A stretch of DNA of 64,000 nucleotides from the IMG/VR virus record IMGVR_UViG_3300029702_000002; one strand, written 5' to 3'. Both the position numbers and the translations under genes were made by a program. Under the pieces are notes generated by a model. It saw only the letters and a program-made list of their open reading frames with translations, was not told where the DNA came from and ran no database searches. The number at the start of each line of letters is the position of its first letter. Positions within the stretch are counted from its first letter, which is position 1. This DNA comes from a virus. Its lineage: Duplodnaviria > Heunggongvirae > Uroviricota > Caudoviricetes. Of the stretch, positions 3,883 through 22,176 are shown in pieces.

Positions 3883-4342
3883 AATTCGGCACTGCCAGTA
3901 TTTATTACTCAACAGTGCCAATCGCGACGGTTTAGTTTCTGCCAGGAAACGCACCGCTACTTGCACTTTTCGTTAGTGCCAGACGCTTTCGACTTCGCTC
4001 AATAGTAGAAGGCAAAATCTTTAAGTAGATGATGTTTCTGAGGACTGCACCTACTTTGTAATTTATACAATGTGATGTATGGAATCATTTGTTGTGAAAA
4101 CAGGCACCAATGGCAACAGTGGTTAAACCTACACAACTATCCTGTCTTCACAACGTTGAGGCCACTACTCCGATTGAATGTTTGCCCAACATGTTACATA
4201 TCAACGCTCGCCGGTATCTCTGTGAATAGAACCTTAGAATTGATAAAAATGTAATGGCCTCAACGTTGTGTGCTGGCTAACCATACCAGCCGGGCTACGT
4301 CGCCGCTTTTTAACCCAGTATAAACGACATAATTGAACAAAA

Positions 4343-14341: not shown

Positions 14342-14701
14342 TTAACCTTTCTTCATCAACTCTCGTTTGATTTCATCGGTACGCATCGTGACATCGGCAG
14401 CGGTGATCGCCTCATTCAATTTCACGATGTCCTCGATTTCCTGCGGTGACTTCTCTGCCAGATGGAAAATGGCTGCTCGAATCACGTCAGAACGAGTGAA
14501 CTTCTCGAAGCGAGGGATGAACTTCATCATCTCCAGCAGTTCGAAGTATTCGTCCTCCAGTGACATTGTGCGGCTTTTAATTTTCTCTTTGCCACGAGTC
14601 GGGCGTCCCTGTGGTCTGACTGGTTGGCGCAAAGGAGTTGTGTTCTTAGCCGGTGCATCAGGCTCTTTGCGCTTTGCTAGGTCACCCATTTTCATGGACA
14701 T
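14342..14701 (-). CDS. ParG-like small partition protein (basic N-terminal tail, putative ribbon-helix-helix C-terminus)
   Basis: 119-aa ORF translationally coupled (ATGA) to ParA-like gene. Confidence 0.5.
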   Translation of the reverse strand: MSMKMGDLAKRKEPDAPAKNTTPLRQPVRPQGRPTRGKEKIKSRTMSLEDEYFELLEMMKFIPRFEKFTRSDVIRAAIFHLAEKSPQEIEDIVKLNEAITAADVTMRTDEIKRELMKKG

Positions 14702-15369
14702 TATTCTTCTTCCTCCAGACTCAACAGATAATCTACAAATTCTTCAAACTCGGCTTCCGCCTTTTTGTCGCGCTCGCTACCGGTCATTTCAAAGATAGAA
14801 CGACCAGACTCTTCCGCATCATCATAGACGTTGCGGTTATATAGATTGACTGGCGCAGACTCGATTCCAAACGTCTCAACAATCTCTTTAGCCGCCAGAA
14901 TGCGAGACACTTGTGATGGCAAAGCCGGGCACTGGTTCATGACCGCGCGGACCTTCACTTTATCGTTTACATTGCGAACATTGTCGATAATAGGATCGAT
15001 GTCACGTAAAGATTTCAAATCACGACGCTTAGGACGCAGCGGGATAATGATAACGTCAGCCATCAGCATCGCTTGTCGCTGAATTTCGGAGTCGAAGCCA
15101 CCAGCATCTACCACTACAAACTCAGCTCTACCCTGAAGCGATTTTAGGTGCTTAATGATGTCATCCTGAACGTATGCAAAAGGAATCAGCTCCAGGTCTT
15201 CGTTCTGTCGACGGTCTTCACACCAGCTCGTTGTCGTGCGCTGAATATCTATATCGGTAATATAAACCTTCTTCTTCTTTTTGACTTTCAGGCAAACGGC
15301 AATTTGCTGGGCAACGGTGGATTTGCCAGGCCCGCCCTTTGTGCCGCCAACCACAAAGATCTTGGTCAT
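14701..15369 (-). CDS. ParA/MinD-family partition ATPase
   Basis: Deviant Walker A KIFVVGGTKGGPGKST at N-terminus, 222 aa. Confidence 0.85.
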   Translation of the reverse strand: MTKIFVVGGTKGGPGKSTVAQQIAVCLKVKKKKKVYITDIDIQRTTTSWCEDRRQNEDLELIPFAYVQDDIIKHLKSLQGRAEFVVVDAGGFDSEIQRQAMLMADVIIIPLRPKRRDLKSLRDIDPIIDNVRNVNDKVKVRAVMNQCPALPSQVSRILAAKEIVETFGIESAPVNLYNRNVYDDAEESGRSIFEMTGSERDKKAEAEFEEFVDYLLSLEEEE

Positions 15370-15687
15370 TGGAGAGTTCCCTTTGCGTATATAATTATCG
15401 TCTGAAACAACTTGTTTTCTTATATGTGATATAGCCTAAATGCCTACGGCTGCGGTGTAAAGGTTAAATGGTAGGTTGTGATTAACAATTGGCAAACATA
15501 GCTTGTATTTGTCTGTTGAAAAAAGTAACAATGACCTCTATATTACAAGTACGGTGATATGCCGTACACAATTTGATAATGCACACGTAATGGGCTATAG
15601 CCTTTTAAAGTAATTTTTGAGTCGAAAACTCAGTTTGAACAGAGGAGATTGATGGCCTTCCTACATCACGGCCATCAGGAGGAATAC

Positions 15688-15957
15688 ATGTCAGCACTAA
15701 AAAAGCAGCGCATCGATTTGAGATTAACCGATGACGATAAAAGCATCATCGAGGAAGCTGCCGCAATGTCTAACCAGAGCATTACTCAGTTTATGGTTAG
15801 CAGTGCATCTGAACGTGCCGTGAAAGTTATAGAGCAACACCGTAGACTAGTTCTGAATGAAGAATCCTGGAATCTGGTTATGGACGCTATAAGCAATCCT
15901 CCGGCACCGAACGACAAGCTGAAACGAGCTGCTGATCGTCTGAAAAGCATGGAGTAG
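15688..15957 (+). CDS. DUF1778/TacA-like antitoxin
   Basis: Small ORF immediately upstream of GNAT toxin; ATG 15688 preceded by CAGGAGGAA. Confidence 0.7.
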   Translation: MSALKKQRIDLRLTDDDKSIIEEAAAMSNQSITQFMVSSASERAVKVIEQHRRLVLNEESWNLVMDAISNPPAPNDKLKRAADRLKSME

Positions 15958-15964
15958 TTTACTC

Positions 15965-16486
15965 GTGGATAATATAAAGATAGAAATTTTCTCTGGAGAG
16001 AAAGATTATGATTTGAATGGTTTTGATTGCGGTGAAGAATCACTAAATGCCTTTTTAACCAACCACTTAAAAAGGCAGCATGAGGGAAAAATTCTTCGCG
16101 CTTATGTGCTTTGCACGAAAGAAGGCAGACCAAAAGTGTTAGGGTATTACACTTTGTCAGGTAGCTGCTTTGAAAAGGAGTCCTTACCTTCAAGAAGCCA
16201 GCAAAAGAAGGTACCTTATCGGAATGTTCCAAGTGTTACTTTGGGTAGGCTGGCTTTGGACAAGTCCCTTCAAGGTCAAGGATTTGGCTCAATGCTTGTA
16301 ACACATGCAATGCGCGTTGTGTACAATGCATCTCTTGCTGTAGGCATTCATGGACTTTTCGTTGAGGCGTTAAATGACAAAGCCAAGGCGTTTTATAAAA
16401 GTTTAGACTTTATCCAGCTGGTTGGTAACAACGAGCGTTCTTTGTTCTATCCTACAAAATCTATCGAAAAATTGTTCGAAGAATAA
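15965..16486 (+). CDS. GNAT acetyltransferase toxin (TacT/AtaT-like)
   Basis: 173-aa GNAT fold with LQGQGFGSMLV acetyl-CoA motif, 8 nt after antitoxin stop; GTG start. Confidence 0.75.
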   Translation: MDNIKIEIFSGEKDYDLNGFDCGEESLNAFLTNHLKRQHEGKILRAYVLCTKEGRPKVLGYYTLSGSCFEKESLPSRSQQKKVPYRNVPSVTLGRLALDKSLQGQGFGSMLVTHAMRVVYNASLAVGIHGLFVEALNDKAKAFYKSLDFIQLVGNNERSLFYPTKSIEKLFEE

Positions 16487-16517
16487 TGTACTCCCCTCAA
16501 GTGAGGGGAACTTCGCA

Positions 16518-16733
16518 TCACCAACCGCAAACTCTCTCTCCCATCGTATTGTGAAAAAGGATTTGGCGTTCGGTTTCTTCGGTCATCACATCATTATTGC
16601 TGATATAGATAGGCCCAGCTCCATCGCAGAACAATACGCTGGCGGTTTGTGGTTTAATGACGCACCCACTTATCATACAACTCACGATGAACGGCAGAAG
16701 CATCTTTCTGACGTATTTTATTGCTCGTCTCAT
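16518..16733 (-). CDS. Outer-membrane spanin (Rz1-like lipoprotein), overlapping i-spanin
   Basis: Signal peptide with lipobox ISGC; ORF overlaps 3' end of 16654-16905 in another frame. Confidence 0.5.
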   Translation of the reverse strand: MRRAIKYVRKMLLPFIVSCMISGCVIKPQTASVLFCDGAGPIYISNNDVMTEETERQILFHNTMGERVCGW

Positions 16734-16905
16734 TCACCACTTCCACTGTGCTTTGAAGTCGTTTTCTGTCTTCCTGTTTTGCCTTCTCTTCCATTGCTCG
16801 TCGCGCCGCATTCCCGCCCATCGTGTAAGCGCCGACAAGAACGAAAAGAACGGCAGCCAGCGTAATCAAAGCAACTTTTAGCTTTGTCATCAGGCTGCCT
16901 AGCAT
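16654..16905 (-). CDS. Inner-membrane spanin (Rz-like)
   Basis: N-terminal transmembrane segment then charged coiled-coil-like region; directly downstream of endolysin. Confidence 0.5.
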   Translation of the reverse strand: MLGSLMTKLKVALITLAAVLFVLVGAYTMGGNAARRAMEEKAKQEDRKRLQSTVEVVNETSNKIRQKDASAVHRELYDKWVRH

Positions 16906-16906
16906 A

Positions 16907-17626
16907 TTAGACCATCCCTTTCTGGTATTTTCTTACCTGCGACCAGGCAATGAATCCTGCCACAACAATAGTGGCAATACCGAAGATGATGCGTACTGTA
17001 TCCCCGCTAGAGATATGACCTTGTGCTTTATCCATAGCAGCGGAAACCTGCGGCATAACATCGGCCAGCTGCGCCAGACCAATACCTGCTGTAACAGTTG
17101 CGCCTGCAGTTTCTTTAGTTACAGGAACAGCCTTCACGGTTTTCACCGGCTTAACAACGCCAGCTCGACGCAGACCTTCCTCAATAACTTCTGCCGCATA
17201 CCAGGTGTTCAGCGTTTTTAGCGGGCCTCGGCCATTCTCGTGGCGAATGATTGCCTCAACCAAAGGTCGAAGGATGTCGTAATCATGCAGATCGATGATC
17301 ATGTCTGCGGTTACACCAACGGCTTTAGACACCTCATTAATGTAGGCGTCAGTATTGTTTTCATTCGGCGGTGCCCAGCGTTCAATAACTTCACGAATGG
17401 TATCGATACTTGTGCCGTCTTTTGCGCGACGTTTATCGTGGTAGGTAATTAGAGTCACCGCCAGCGCACGAATCCCCCAAACAGGGTCTTTAAACGTGCA
17501 AAAGCGCGGTTCGTCTGGATTCGCAACCAGACCTTGCCACGGTGATCCTTTATCAAGATTACCGGGGTTATTATTACGAATGCCTCTCGGAGTCTTCATC
17601 CTTGATCTCCTGTTATTGCAGTCCAC
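16907..17626 (-). CDS. Putative endolysin/peptidoglycan hydrolase with C-terminal hydrophobic segment
   Basis: GIRNNNPGNL motif-containing domain, position between holin-like and spanin genes; C-terminal VRIIFGIATIVVAGFIAW hydrophobic stretch. Confidence 0.55.
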   Translation of the reverse strand: MDCNNRRSRMKTPRGIRNNNPGNLDKGSPWQGLVANPDEPRFCTFKDPVWGIRALAVTLITYHDKRRAKDGTSIDTIREVIERWAPPNENNTDAYINEVSKAVGVTADMIIDLHDYDILRPLVEAIIRHENGRGPLKTLNTWYAAEVIEEGLRRAGVVKPVKTVKAVPVTKETAGATVTAGIGLAQLADVMPQVSAAMDKAQGHISSGDTVRIIFGIATIVVAGFIAWSQVRKYQKGMV

Positions 17627-17948
17627 TTTTTACGCCATACGCGGCTAACCCCAAAAGCAGTGCGGTAATAATGAACGACGTTATTTTAGAAACAATGCCG
17701 CCAAAGAACCCACTTGAGATGGAATCTAACCGGTTAAGGAGTTTGTCCAGATTGGAGTGTTGAATACTATGTTGCGCCGGGGTCATATCACCAAAGTAGG
17801 TTTTCAGCTGATCATTGACCTCCTGGCCAATTTCTTCACGTAGCTCTTTACCTAATTTGCCAACAACCTCCCGAGCAACGATCGCGGCAATACGCTCAAC
17901 TTGCTCTGTTGTAACGCCCGCCATCTCGTTCGACATGTTTTCCTCCAT
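17613..17948 (-). CDS. Holin-like membrane protein (single C-terminal TM)
   Basis: Position upstream of endolysin; C-terminal ITSFIITALLLGLAAYGV segment. Confidence 0.4.
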   Translation of the reverse strand: MEENMSNEMAGVTTEQVERIAAIVAREVVGKLGKELREEIGQEVNDQLKTYFGDMTPAQHSIQHSNLDKLLNRLDSISSGFFGGIVSKITSFIITALLLGLAAYGVKSGLQ

Positions 17949-18138
17949 GAAAAGTCAAATCGGGATGGCGGATTTATATCACACTTCTCCTTTCAATTAT
18001 AGGTATATACTTACCTATCTATGCATATGCCGTTTAACGGCTGTTCAAATTCGTATCTAGTAACTCACTAATATATCCCTATGATTGCGGCTGTGAGATC
18101 GCATTTTAAACCTCACAGCCATATAAATAATGTCTAAA

Positions 18139-21100
18139 TCAGTTACTTGTTGCCCCAACAGTACCTGCAAATTTCAGCCATTGACCTGACGGACTTCTAT
18201 TACTACGGTAGTGATAAACGAGGATTGCGTTTGTAACTCCACCGTAGTCAGCTTTATGTGACGTTGTTAAACGAATTGTATAATCACCGTTAGGTAGATT
18301 AAAAACTTCGATTATAGATTCTGCTAATTCTACAGCACCAAATCCCGTTATATTGTTGATACTGCCAGCATTGAATCCCATAGCATCGCCAAAGCCAATC
18401 CAATAACTTTTGCTAAACGCCCCATTTGATTTTAGGTGGCTAATGAATGCGGACAAGCTCATGCCCATATCCCCACCTGAAACAGAGGAAGTTCGCACAG
18501 TCATGCTTGGAAGAGCACTGCTCTTCACATAGGAACTTAGAAGGTTTGTTACCTCTGTTTTCGTGTAAGCATTAAGGTTAGCCGCAGTCAAAGTTATATC
18601 GGCAGAGCCATCAAACGCCACACCAGCAATTTTCCTTGCTGTCTGCAATTTTGTGGCGGTTGCGGCATTACCAGTAGTGTTCTGATTACCAGTTGTATTC
18701 ACACCAGGGATTGAATCCTTAGCGGTATATACCTGCGCCCACGCTGACCATGCCGCACCTGTGTTATCTCTTCGTGAGCGAATGAAAACTGGCGCATGTG
18801 CACCGCTCGTACCACTCCAGCCAATAAGCAACTCTCCCTCACCAGCAGCACTCGCACCTTTCATGTGCAATACGTTGCCATACATGGTCGGGTAGCTATT
18901 GTTGTACGCCTCATACATTTGAATGCCAGCAGTGCCTTGAGTAGAGCCGCTTAACGCCGTAACTCGGCCACGAGATACCAATGTATTAATATTGATATCG
19001 CCTGAACCATCAAACTTAACACCATTGATGTTTCTCGCTGTTTGCAACTTCGTAGCTGTTGAAGCATTACCGTTCAAACTACCATTTACGCCACCAGTCA
19101 CATTTAGTCCATTACCAATTGATACAGCACCGCTGGTATTATTAATTGTAATAGGTCGCAAACCGTTCCATGAACCTAATGTGTCTCCTGATGCTGTTAG
19201 CATGAAATATGTGTTCGATCCATCATTACGGATAAAGAACCCAAAGCTACCGTAAGCAATGCGGAAACCATTTGCATATTTTGAAATGATCTCGCCAGAA
19301 GATGTCAAACCTCCAGATAATGTACCACCGGTAAGAGGTAATGCACCGACATCAGAGGCTGTTGGTTTGTTTTTCGTGTTATATACTCTTCGCCATCCTG
19401 GAGAATAATCTGTGCCATTAAATACATAGATAAACTCCGCATTAGTGAGAGCACCGGAAACACTTGTCGTTGTGGCCGTTGTTATGCGGATCGTATAATT
19501 ATTTGAACTACTACCGTTATTAAATACTTCTATAACAGCTCCTGCCAATGGAATAACGCCACAACCAGTTTCACTATTTGGTATGGTTGCGCTATTGGCA
19601 TAGGCCCACGCACATCGAGCAATCCATGCCTTTGTGTTAAAGGCTCCATTATTTTGCAATAACGTCACTAACTGGGCTGTTGTTATTGCTCCGCCATTAC
19701 TTCCTGTAGTTAACCAACCAGTAGGAGATGCTGGGCAACCTATATTTGCTGGTGACAAGGAAATATTTGCCGAACCGTCAAACGACACCCCATTAATAGT
19801 ACGCGCAGTCTGCAACTTCGTAGCAGTAGCCGCATTACCTGTTGTATTCTGATTACCAGTCGTATTAACACCTGGCAAATTAATATTTGCAGTACCATCA
19901 AAGCTCACGCCGCCGATAGTTCTTGCCGTCTGTAGTTTTGTAGCAGTTGCGGCATTACCAGTGGTGTTCTGATTACCCGTAGTGTTTACACCTGGAAGAT
20001 TAATATTGGCAGAACCGTCGAAACCAACTCCACCGATAGATCTTGCCGTCTGTAATTTCGTTGCTGTAGCAGCATTTCCTGAAAGACTTGAAATAAATGG
20101 ATGTGAACAGTAATAACCTCGTCCATTTTTAAAGTCCAAAATTATCTGTGCATTCGTACTTTCTGATAAAGGATCAGTTGCCCCCCACTTATAAGTGGTT
20201 TGACCAACTGCATAATCAGCCGTTGGAACAATCACATTTAATCCTTCCTCAGCAAAAATCTGGATAGGGAATGCTCTTGTCTCAACGTAAAATACACTAC
20301 ACAAATCATCATCTTTCACGCTTGCGATAATCGAGTGTATAGATCGTTCAACGGTTGAATATATTGAGAAAAAACCAACAGCATATGAACCGCGATCAGA
20401 CCAACCGCCCGGCATAACAAAACCATTAAACTCACAATTATTCATAGCGTATCCGCCAGCTGAGGAATAAGTGGTGATAACCACTCGTGAGGCTAATTCA
20501 TCTGTGCCACCACCAGTTCGGCGAAAGACTACAGGATACCACTTACCGCTTACTGCATTTGCAGGAGCAGAGAAAGTGTATTTTCGCATCCCCTTTTTCT
20601 TATCCACTTCACCTTTGCTGTAAACATTAATGTTATTCAGGAAGCGGCCCTTGTCGGGGATATCAGCACCATTCTGATCCTTCTGTAGTCTTTTTTCAGC
20701 ATTATCATATGCGGCCTTAACTGCTTTTGGCGTTGCGGCCAGCGATTCACTGGTGCTATCGACAGCACTGCTAAGTTTCACAACACCTTTAGTTGTAAGG
20801 CTTGCGTCTTCCATCGCAACTGCACCGGCAATCTCTTCAGCACGATCAGCAGCAGCTTCCGCACGGGTCGCAGCGGATTCAGCAGCAGTTTTGCTCTGAG
20901 ATGCTGCCGTCGCACTGCCTGCCGCCTCTGTTGCTTTCGTGGATGCTGTCGTGGCGCTGCCCTTCGCTGCGGACGCTTGTCTGGTCGCCTCATCTTTTGA
21001 AGCAGACGCCGATGATGCCGATGACGCTGCCGAACTGGCGGACGATGCGGCTGCCGTTTTTGAGGATTCTGCACGGGTTTCCGACGCTTTCGCGTTCGTT

Positions 21101-22176
21101 TCGGATGTCTTCGCTGCGGAAGCAGACCTCGCTGCTGCGCTGGCCTGTTCAGTGGCTTCGCCAGCCTTCGTTGTGGCTGTTGAAGCAGACGATGCGGCAC
21201 TTTCTGCCGATTTTCCGGCGGCGGTGGCACTGGCTGAGGCCTGCCCGGCACTTGTTGACGCGGCACTGGCAGACGACGCAGCCGCTGTTTTTGAGCCTGC
21301 CGCAGCCGAAGCGCTCTGTCCCGCTGCCGTTTCAGAAGACCTGGCGTTCGTCTCGGACGTTTTTGCCGCCTTCGCGGAATTTCCTGCCGCCGTTGCCGAG
21401 GAAGCGGCATTACTGGCGCTCGAGGCTGCGCTCGTTTCTGATGATTTCGCTGCCTCTTTTGAGGCCGCCGCATCCCGGGCTGAGGTGGCAGCTTCTGACG
21501 CTTTCGTGGTCGCGGTGGATGCAGAAGTGGCTGCTGATTGTTGTGACGCTGCGGCATTCGTTTCAGATTTTTTCGCAGCAGTTGCACTCGCACTTGCGGC
21601 ACTTTGTGAGGATGCCGCAGCGGATGCACTTTGAGACGCTTGAGAGGCTTTTTCTCCAGCGGTATTGGCGCTTTCTGCTGCTGCGGCAGCACTGGCCGCC
21701 GCCTCACGAGCTTTGTCGCCAGCAGCATCAATCGCGTCAGTGTTATTTTTATACCACTCAACGTTTTCGTTGTGCTCGTTGACGATCTGCATTAGCGGCT
21801 TAACGGTTACTTCTGTACCGTCTTCACGCTCGATTGTCACCTCATCCAGAGCAGTCAACCAACTGCGCATAGACTTGGAATCAGCCGACATACGCGACAT
21901 TAGTGCTGTAAAGCGCGCGCTAAACTGTGTTAAGTCGCCTTCATAGGTCGTAATGATTCGGCACGGAACCTCAGACTGAGTTTCGCCGGTATAAGGTTCT
22001 GAGAGAACAATATTCGTATCGCTTATTACGCGCTTGATCTCATACAGCTTATTGTCGGGGCCAATGACGATCATCCCCGGCAACACACCATTAGCTGTTA
22101 CGTTCCAGGCTGTCCCTGCCCCAACCAGAGTATTGCTACCCTGTGTAAATGTGATAGTACCTTCCCTGTACCACAT
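18139..22176 (-). CDS. Tail fibre protein (1345 aa)
   Basis: Long Ala/Ser-rich low-complexity region followed by at least 5 copies of NTTGNAATATKLQTAR..GV.FDGSA fibre repeat. Confidence 0.9.
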   Translation of the reverse strand: MWYREGTITFTQGSNTLVGAGTAWNVTANGVLPGMIVIGPDNKLYEIKRVISDTNIVLSEPYTGETQSEVPCRIITTYEGDLTQFSARFTALMSRMSADSKSMRSWLTALDEVTIEREDGTEVTVKPLMQIVNEHNENVEWYKNNTDAIDAAGDKAREAAASAAAAAESANTAGEKASQASQSASAAASSQSAASASATAAKKSETNAAASQQSAATSASTATTKASEAATSARDAAASKEAAKSSETSAASSASNAASSATAAGNSAKAAKTSETNARSSETAAGQSASAAAGSKTAAASSASAASTSAGQASASATAAGKSAESAASSASTATTKAGEATEQASAAARSASAAKTSETNAKASETRAESSKTAAASSASSAASSASSASASKDEATRQASAAKGSATTASTKATEAAGSATAASQSKTAAESAATRAEAAADRAEEIAGAVAMEDASLTTKGVVKLSSAVDSTSESLAATPKAVKAAYDNAEKRLQKDQNGADIPDKGRFLNNINVYSKGEVDKKKGMRKYTFSAPANAVSGKWYPVVFRRTGGGTDELASRVVITTYSSAGGYAMNNCEFNGFVMPGGWSDRGSYAVGFFSIYSTVERSIHSIIASVKDDDLCSVFYVETRAFPIQIFAEEGLNVIVPTADYAVGQTTYKWGATDPLSESTNAQIILDFKNGRGYYCSHPFISSLSGNAATATKLQTARSIGGVGFDGSANINLPGVNTTGNQNTTGNAATATKLQTARTIGGVSFDGTANINLPGVNTTGNQNTTGNAATATKLQTARTINGVSFDGSANISLSPANIGCPASPTGWLTTGSNGGAITTAQLVTLLQNNGAFNTKAWIARCAWAYANSATIPNSETGCGVIPLAGAVIEVFNNGSSSNNYTIRITTATTTSVSGALTNAEFIYVFNGTDYSPGWRRVYNTKNKPTASDVGALPLTGGTLSGGLTSSGEIISKYANGFRIAYGSFGFFIRNDGSNTYFMLTASGDTLGSWNGLRPITINNTSGAVSIGNGLNVTGGVNGSLNGNASTATKLQTARNINGVKFDGSGDININTLVSRGRVTALSGSTQGTAGIQMYEAYNNSYPTMYGNVLHMKGASAAGEGELLIGWSGTSGAHAPVFIRSRRDNTGAAWSAWAQVYTAKDSIPGVNTTGNQNTTGNAATATKLQTARKIAGVAFDGSADITLTAANLNAYTKTEVTNLLSSYVKSSALPSMTVRTSSVSGGDMGMSLSAFISHLKSNGAFSKSYWIGFGDAMGFNAGSINNITGFGAVELAESIIEVFNLPNGDYTIRLTTSHKADYGGVTNAILVYHYRSNRSPSGQWLKFAGTVGATSN

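Follow-up and report, generated by a model that had tools for sequence, protein, structure and literature searches.

The lysis cassette of an SSU5-like phage-plasmid of Escherichia coli: a putative Enc34/M4Lys-type endolysin with a C-terminal membrane domain, preceded by a gene of the conserved family PHROG 5093

How the cell wall is reached by an endolysin that has a C-terminal transmembrane domain (TMD) and lacks a signal peptide is a question on which two experimental papers on analogous enzymes disagree, with regard to the need for Sec and for a holin. The lysis cassette described here bears on this question. It occupies positions 16518-17948, on the minus strand, of a viral DNA stretch of 64,000 nucleotides (IMG/VR record IMGVR_UViG_3300029702_000002; "the window" always means this whole stretch), and by its sequence matches belongs to an SSU5-like phage-plasmid of Escherichia coli. 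Such phage-plasmids are widespread among Enterobacteriaceae of clinical and farm origin and represent an inducible, genetically tractable E. coli system. An original prediction, made from the sequence alone, had read the locus as a lysis cassette of atypical membrane topology that may use a non-canonical release mechanism.

The lysis operon

The first 25 kb of the window are 100% identical to the E. coli plasmid pRHB14-C22_3 (CP057798.1), a circular element of 108,954 bp from a pig-farm isolate, and match 1408 plasmid records. Over a 1.9-kb region, the window shares 98% identity with Escherichia phage Cyrano and 82% with Salmonella phage SSU5, where holin, endolysin, Rz and Rz1 are annotated at the same place (CYRAN_22-25 and SSU5_026-030). 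Because of these three matches and the matching lysis annotation, we assign the window element to the SSU5-like phage-plasmids of E. coli, an assignment made by sequence comparison. The SSU5 and Cyrano cassettes are orthologous to that of the window (82-98% nucleotide identity) and do not differ from it in substance; their annotations are positional, and the Rz1 start varies. In CP057798.1, three genes of the cassette are annotated, each as "hypothetical protein", and Rz1 is unannotated.

Four co-oriented genes make up the operon (Table 1). All four products matched PHROG families (endolysin, E-value 7e-89 to PHROG 873; gene 1, 2e-68; Rz, 9e-25; Rz1, 2e-24), and a Pfam and NCBIfam scan of the four proteins gave nothing above the cut-offs. 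Relative to SSU5 (82-85% nucleotide identity), gene 1 carries 38 synonymous and 5 non-synonymous codon differences, and the endolysin gene 98 and 15, mostly at third positions. In view of this synonymous excess and the strong PHROG matches, the genes are under purifying selection and are real genes rather than chance open reading frames (ORFs). It is almost certain that the four genes form the late lysis operon of an SSU5-like phage-plasmid; the PHROG matches, the endolysin homology and the spanin pair all agree with the lysis cassette that had been predicted.

The ORFs of the original prediction were real, but its starts for gene 1 (17948) and for the endolysin (17626) probably make both proteins too long. 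Gene 1 most likely begins at ATG 17936, with GGAGG 5 nt upstream and homologues that begin with MSNE, the start at 17948 being less likely. For the endolysin, ATG 17599 is the most likely start, preceded by AGGAG 7 nt upstream and supported by homologues that begin with MKTPRG; GTG 17626 is less likely. The extended N-terminus read from this GTG contains NRRSR, and twin-arginine translocation (Tat) was considered as an export route, but was rejected, as no hydrophobic region follows and the homologues start at the downstream ATG. A lambda-like dual start in gene 1 (Met1/Met5 of the 107-residue form) was also rejected, because the second Met is not conserved among relatives.

The operon is preceded by a tail-fibre gene of 1345 codons (stop at 18139), with a gap of 190 nt. 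The candidate promoter was the one site seen in the sigma-70-like scan, compared with 3.3 sites expected in shuffled sequences, and is not significant alone. Gene 1 stops 13 nt before the endolysin start. The hairpin at the distal end is common to the lysis operon and to a convergent GNAT-toxin gene.

Table 1. Features of the lysis operon and its borders, in window coordinates.
Feature	Coordinates	Strand	Basis
Candidate operon promoter, sigma-70-like	18070..18097	-	Consensus scan, 9/12 matches; weak evidence
Gene 1, 107 aa, PHROG 5093	17613..17936	-	GGAGG Shine-Dalgarno sequence and homologue N-termini
Putative endolysin (gene 2), 230 aa, Enc34/M4Lys type	16907..17599	-	PDB 7Q47, M4Lys alignment, PHROG 873
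Predicted endolysin membrane helix 1, aa ~163-189, ETAGATVTAGIGLAQLADVMPQVSAAM	17033..17113	-	Hydropathy 1.1, conserved columns
Predicted endolysin membrane helix 2, aa 203-222, RIIFGIATIVVAGFIAWSQV, then RKYQKGMV	16934..16993	-	Hydropathy 2.07
Predicted i-spanin (Rz, gene 3), 83 aa	16654..16905	-	PHROG 1026, hydropathy 2.4
Predicted o-spanin (Rz1, gene 4), 71-aa precursor	16518..16733	-	PHROG 1275, lipobox ISG/C
Intrinsic-terminator-like hairpin	16490..16511	-	9-bp stem with 5 GC pairs, directly after the Rz1 stop

The endolysin

By homology, the product of gene 2 is a peptidoglycan glycosidase of the Enc34/M4Lys type whose C-terminus forms a two-helix membrane domain. Residues 3-151 matched the endolysin catalytic domain of Hafnia phage Enc34 (crystal structure, PDB 7Q47_A) with an E-value of 6.8e-54. 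The catalytic E131 of Enc34 and its W79 and Y95, which position the substrate, correspond to E121 (in HENG), W75 (in ERWAPP) and Y86 of the window protein, and all three are invariant in the endolysin alignment. This PHA02564-type glycosidase domain (residues ~1-150) is followed by a Lys/Pro-rich linker and then by the membrane domain. M4Lys of Salmonella phage BSPM4 is 58% identical over the full length, including the C-terminal two-helix domain. The whole protein, this domain included, also aligns with the endolysins of Serratia phage JS26 and Aeromonas phage BUCT551, with G174, Q177, SG(D) and G207 conserved in the domain.

Hydropathy (Kyte-Doolittle scale, mean over 19 residues, used throughout) agreed with the C-terminal hydrophobic segment of the original prediction, which is helix 2, followed by a basic tail, and added helix 1 (Table 1); the peaks are 2.07 for residues 204-222 and 1.1 for residues ~164-183. 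Helix 1 is weakly hydrophobic and rich in Gly, Ala and Thr, and carries the conserved G174 and Q177. An N-terminal hydrophobic segment is lacking in the hydropathy profile. The full-length architecture was found by tblastn in 182 phage records (coverage of at least 80%), and the catalytic domain alone in many internal virion and tape-measure proteins.

The charge distribution around the two helices was compared in four lineages. The linker before helix 1 is Lys-rich, with a net charge of +2 to +4, and the C-terminal tail carries +1 to +3 in all four. The inter-helix loop has a net charge of 0 in the window endolysin and of -1 to -2 in the three homologues. From this bias of linker, loop and tail we infer a hairpin in N-in/C-in orientation, the one predicted for Siskin, that leaves the catalytic domain in the cytoplasm.

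A C-terminal membrane topology of this kind is not new, and is largely known from three published cases. For Siskin, where it was first noted, a new class of endolysins with two C-terminal TMDs in N-in/C-in orientation was predicted (2019, PMC6498227). Experiments on M4Lys came next (2020, PMC7143992). The truncated enzyme degrades peptidoglycan, and the full-length protein lyses E. coli alone, without the upstream gene and insensitively to azide. Without its TMD the protein causes no lysis, and co-expression of the upstream gene does not change this; by itself, the TMD has a bacteriostatic effect, and removal of the 13 C-terminal residues abolishes lysis. Enc34 ORF39 is toxic at full length and muralytic in truncated form (2022, PMC8943055). 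The same paper gives the structure, calls the proximal TMD helix amphipathic, states the route to murein as unknown, and reports this architecture to be confined to Chivirus and certain related viruses. A later paper that resolves the export mechanism of endolysins with a C-terminal TMD was not found in the literature searched.

The relationship to these Chi-like cassettes (Casjensviridae) extends beyond the endolysin. M4Lys and ORF39 have the same PHA02564-type domain with Glu, Trp and Tyr and the same two-helix TMD with a basic tail, and their genes stand in the same order of small membrane protein, endolysin, short i-spanin and overlapped o-spanin, the o-spanin being homologous. They differ in that they belong to Chi-like siphoviruses of ~59 kb rather than to a phage-plasmid of ~109 kb, at 54-58% identity, and in the first gene, which is unrelated: the Chi-like gp37 has an N-terminal transmembrane (TM) segment, the PHROG 5093 protein of the window a C-terminal one. 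What is new here is that the Enc34/M4Lys-type system extends to SSU5-like phage-plasmids, where its first gene is an unrelated one, and that this first gene belongs to a conserved, uncharacterized lysis-cassette family. The overall novelty is modest.

The spanins

By homology, genes 3 and 4 are a two-component spanin of the overlapped type and of the Chi family. In Rz, an N-terminal TM segment (residues ~8-28) precedes a charged and helical periplasmic part, short at ~55 residues, that ends with DKWVRH; PHROG 1026 is labelled "Rz-like spanin". Rz1 has the signal peptide MRRAIKYVRKMLLPFIVSCMISG followed by Cys24 of the lipobox ISGC, leaving a predicted mature lipoprotein of 48 residues. Its gene begins 80 nt inside the 3' end of Rz, in another frame, and extends past the Rz stop. 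The original prediction had correctly noted this overlap but considered it part of an atypical cassette. In fact, overlapped genes are one of three standard spanin architectures (embedded, overlapped and separated; Kongari 2018, PMC6139136), and pairs such as P2 LysB/LysC likewise combine an i-spanin with an N-terminal TM segment and an o-spanin gene that starts inside and ends beyond it.

Rz1 is 40% identical to gp40 of BSPM4 (E-value 2e-18), a Chi-type o-spanin. The i-spanins of the Chi-like phages BSPM4, JS26 and BUCT551 have the same size as the window Rz and share its C-terminal KW(V/M)R motif, and the very short length of Rz is a trait common to Chi-like phages. As BLASTP of Rz against the JS26 i-spanin returned no alignment, PHROG 1026 and the KW(V/M)R motif are the two indications that these proteins may be related. 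SSU5 was placed in the "Chi" family in one table of Kongari 2018 (PMC6139136) and listed as a singleton in another, presumably the o-spanin and i-spanin tables, respectively.

Annotation of Rz1 is inconsistent across records (16518-16733, minus strand, in the window; 4220-4339 in our locus L001; 3956-4186 in L002). It is absent from CP057798, has an internal GTG start in Cyrano, which removes signal peptide and lipobox, and is annotated twice in the SSU5 RefSeq record, with different starts. In BSPM4 (L003, 3109-3492), RefSeq has a minus-strand "tail protein" opposite the plus-strand i-spanin of ~84 residues.

The first gene

As predicted originally, gene 1 has a single C-terminal TM segment (residues about 81-103 of 107, hydropathy 2.0). 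The tail behind it is KSGLQ; the family mean is ~10 residues with ~1 positive charge. Holins usually carry a hydrophilic, highly charged C-terminal tail. Gene 1 lacks such a tail; like holins, it does encode a small TM protein and lies next to an endolysin gene.

The protein matched PHROG 5093 ("unknown function") over positions 1-107 of 107, and all 30 aligned relatives matched this family too. For neither gene 1 nor any of the 30 relatives was there a match to a holin family in Pfam, NCBIfam or PHROG, so the "holin-like" label of the original prediction reflects position only. Kinship to the Chi-like "holin" gp37 was rejected (hhalign probability 1%; TM segment at residues 20-40 in gp37 versus 85-102 in gene 1), and gene 1 accordingly differs in both homology and TM position from the Chi-like "class IV" holins (Siskin, Enc34 ORF38, BSPM4 ORF_37), whose TM segment is N-terminal and in N-out/C-in orientation. 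The gp37 of BSPM4 is labelled "Rz-like spanin" (PHROG 7686), though the literature calls it a putative holin.

In the alignment of 30 relatives, G49, H56 and H60 (HxxxH) are invariant and D71 is nearly so. These residues fall within YFGDMTPxQHxIQHxRLDKLL in the soluble part of the protein, and the sequence of the TM segment itself varies. An AlphaFold2 model from the same alignment (mean predicted local distance difference test score, pLDDT, 77.5; predicted template modelling score 0.31) has helices at 10-48 and 53-104, the second being continuous with the TM segment; a model from 11 close sequences was unusable (pLDDT 46). Foldseek against BFVD found no structural neighbours, and a profile search of the PDB gave designed repeat proteins only. 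The literature searched contained no experimental data on PHROG 5093.

Gene 1 in other lysis cassettes

The gene 1 family was found in 12 cultured-phage records, all of them SSU5-like genomes. An exhaustive profile search of 1.8 billion representatives identified 54 relatives of 100-140 residues with the same architecture. A further context search of viral and metagenome collections, with another alignment, returned no relatives.

Eight independent distant loci were informative on gene order: the gene 1 relative lies 70-100 nt after a gene of the tail-fibre module and abuts or overlaps the next lysis gene. The lysis enzyme varies. It is a Peptidase_M15_3 protein in L010 and L011, accompanied by a separate multi-TM protein of a 2-TM family shared by the two, and a GH19 protein in L014, with another 2-TM family that also occurs in L009, where no lysis enzyme is adjacent. 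In L013 and L017 an SLT protein with an N-terminal anchor is found together with Pfam Holin_2-3, and in L016 a T4-type Phage_lysozyme together with TM proteins of 42 and 155 residues. L018, where an N-terminal fragment looks M15-like by eye, ends with its contig and is not informative on a multi-TM protein. A separate small multi-TM protein is thus present in 7/7 informative distant cassettes, two of which have Holin_2-3.

The cassettes of SSU5-like elements are organized differently. In elements from Escherichia, Salmonella, Buttiauxella, Kluyvera, Photorhabdus, Xenorhabdus and Morganella, among which identity falls to 56% for gene 1 and to 63% for the endolysin, no such multi-TM protein was found, and the endolysin always bears a TMD, so that its own tail is the sole multi-TM element of the cassette. 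The distribution is therefore complementary: a separate holin-like gene is present where the endolysin has no membrane domain, and absent where it has one. PHROG 5093 is kept as the first lysis gene across five endolysin types. Aeromonas phage BUCT551 (L005, 1077-3577) has the TMD-endolysin and the spanins but no gene 1.

The endolysin gene of BUCT551 directly follows a gene of 453 codons; Rz comes next, and then an unannotated overlapped Rz1. The contigs of L011, L014 and L017 (~104-110 kb) share an order of lysis cassette, a protein of ~390-450 residues, PhoH, a protein of ~230 residues, Hfq and DnaB. The size of these contigs and the common order of PhoH, Hfq and DnaB suggest that metagenomes hold a broader set of SSU5-related genomes, from large phages or phage-plasmids, to which the distant PHROG 5093 contigs belong. 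The SSU5-like elements from Photorhabdus, Xenorhabdus and Morganella have two genes (PHROG 2427 and PHROG 6061/4062, function unknown) inserted in the lysis operon, at either the gene 1/endolysin or the endolysin/spanin junction (L024, 3898-4865; L026, 4546-5522; L028, 4578-5348).

Access of the endolysin to murein

The comparative pattern raises two questions: does the membrane domain take the place of a holin, and what is the role of the HxxxH protein? In the mechanism that we favour, and consider moderately probable as a whole, the endolysin would insert into the inner membrane as an N-in/C-in hairpin, with the Lys-rich linker and the basic C-terminal tail on the cytoplasmic side and the catalytic domain retained in the cytoplasm. 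Once a critical level is reached, or on a trigger, a lesion would be formed by the membrane domains themselves and would let the tethered enzyme reach the murein. The endolysin would serve as its own holin, in the way seen for M4Lys expressed by itself, and the spanins would then fuse inner and outer membranes. Gene 1 would be an accessory lysis-timing or trigger protein, not the hole-former. This reading is based on the charge bias, the M4Lys results and the complementary distribution of holin-like genes and TMD-endolysins. By analogy with the homologues, access through the endolysin's own TMD is the somewhat probable route; for an accessory gene 1 rather than a sole holin, we judge the chances only slightly better than even. 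The non-canonical release of the original prediction agrees with the same homologues, M4Lys (PMC7143992) and Enc34 ORF39 (PMC8943055), to the extent that azide-insensitive lysis in the absence of the upstream gene, and the need for the TMD, may be transferred to the window endolysin.

Several observations weigh against this mechanism. All functional claims are transferred from homologues (54-58% identity) for which strong promoters were used to obtain overexpression, and the Enc34 authors warn that lysis on overexpression may be an artefact (PMC8943055). The M4Lys authors predicted the opposite topology, N-out/C-in (PMC7143992). LysAP of Acidovorax phage AP1, with a GH24 domain and one C-terminal TM segment, was reported to be a Sec-dependent "C-terminal SAR" (signal-anchor-release) endolysin that is helped by its holin. 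A profile search with the membrane domain alone returned only pieces of endolysins, from contig ends or incomplete gene calls, and no holin relative that stands by itself; for this reason, an origin by holin-endolysin fusion, or a "built-in holin", lacks homology support. The "holin-like" label of the partners in four distant cassettes reflects topology only, and charge bias does not settle the topology of gene 1.

The most serious alternative, which we nevertheless regard as rather unlikely, is a canonical two-step system. Gene 1 would be a single-TMD holin or pinholin of a new class, and the endolysin would be exported N-out, tethered at its C-terminus as a "C-terminal SAR" protein, and both freed and activated once gene 1 depolarizes the membrane. 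The N-out/C-in prediction for M4Lys (PMC7143992) fits this scheme, the AP1 study proposes the same model for its GH24 endolysin, and the Enc34 paper raises, as a speculation, a SAR-like release that involves a pinholin (PMC8943055). However, no pathway is known by which a C-terminal signal would export an N-terminal domain of ~200 residues (PMC8943055), and such export would require passage of the Lys-rich linker through the membrane.

Membrane-tethered endolysins are well known from SAR endolysin and pinholin systems, such as R21/S21 68 of phage 21 and Lyz of P1. Helix 1 of the window endolysin resembles a SAR domain in being weakly hydrophobic and Gly/Ala-rich, but the hydropathy of helix 2 is unlike that of SAR domains, and SAR endolysins have an N-terminal signal-anchor whereas the anchor here is C-terminal. 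The two-TM N-in/C-in hairpin with its basic tail resembles a class II holin; these likenesses are of architecture, with no homology detected. LysAP/HolAP of AP1 likewise depends on a C-terminal TM segment for lysis, but differs in its GH24 domain, single TM segment, reported Sec dependence and Holin_2-3 holin, and is analogous rather than homologous.

As to gene 1 itself, its position is that of a holin, it is the sole small non-spanin membrane protein of the SSU5-type cassette, and its TM segment, which contains polar residues, is the best-conserved part among close relatives. Over the wider family the invariant residues lie in the soluble part instead. The lack of a charged C-terminal tail, the lack of a holin family match and the co-occurrence with separate holin-like genes elsewhere all argue against a holin. 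M4Lys is also independent of its upstream gene, which does not rescue the TMD-less form either, although that gene is unrelated to PHROG 5093.

A membrane-anchored moron at the tail/lysis junction, with a function outside lysis (for example superinfection exclusion, or associated with tail fibres), is an improbable identity for gene 1. The gene always follows tail-fibre genes, SSU5 has other membrane morons at this junction (Cor and an outer-membrane protein), and PHROG 5093 has no annotated function. Yet in every context 70-200 nt lie between gene 1 and the tail-fibre gene, whereas gene 1 overlaps the next lysis gene by 1-4 nt or leaves a gap of 0-13 nt, a spacing that points to co-translation with the lysis operon, and the gene persists through five changes of endolysin type. 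That the 230-residue protein is a virion-associated entry lysin is very improbable: internal virion proteins, tape-measure proteins and Gp29 of PDB 9VVP also contain its catalytic domain, and the CDD name of the domain is "virion protein", but it has the full-length M4Lys/Enc34 architecture, lies between gene 1 and the spanins, and has an integral membrane domain incompatible with packaging as a soluble virion protein, and neither another endolysin nor a second lysis locus is annotated in SSU5.

Returning to an accessory gene 1, a partner-specific antiholin is disfavoured because the soluble motif is invariant while both endolysin and hole-former have changed. The motif fits a factor that acts on something common to all these cassettes, be it the membrane, a host factor or a ligand. 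It is conceivable, though we offer it only tentatively, that PHROG 5093 represents an unrecognized class of lysis control, neither a described holin nor an antiholin, kept at the head of the lysis operon across a large SSU5-related phage group through exchanges of the endolysin (five types) and of the hole-former (at least four types), and that SSU5-like phage-plasmids have a holin-less, two-component system of a trigger plus a self-exporting endolysin.

Neighbouring genes

Convergent with the lysis operon, positions 15649-16486 (plus strand) encode a DUF1778 antitoxin and a GNAT-family acetyltransferase toxin of the TacAT/KacAT type. A ParA ATPase gene (222 codons) followed by a gene of 119 codons is found at 14342-15369 (minus strand). 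The latter is labelled "RelE/ParE putative toxin" in Cyrano, possibly a misannotation, as its position is that of a ParB/ParG-like partition partner. The tail-fibre ORF upstream of the operon (18139-22176, minus strand, 1345 residues) contains a long Ala/Ser-rich region and five "GNAATATKLQTAR" units. It is annotated with 2676 nt in the source plasmid record, together with an antisense "hypothetical protein" in the low-complexity part, and with 4026 nt in Cyrano.

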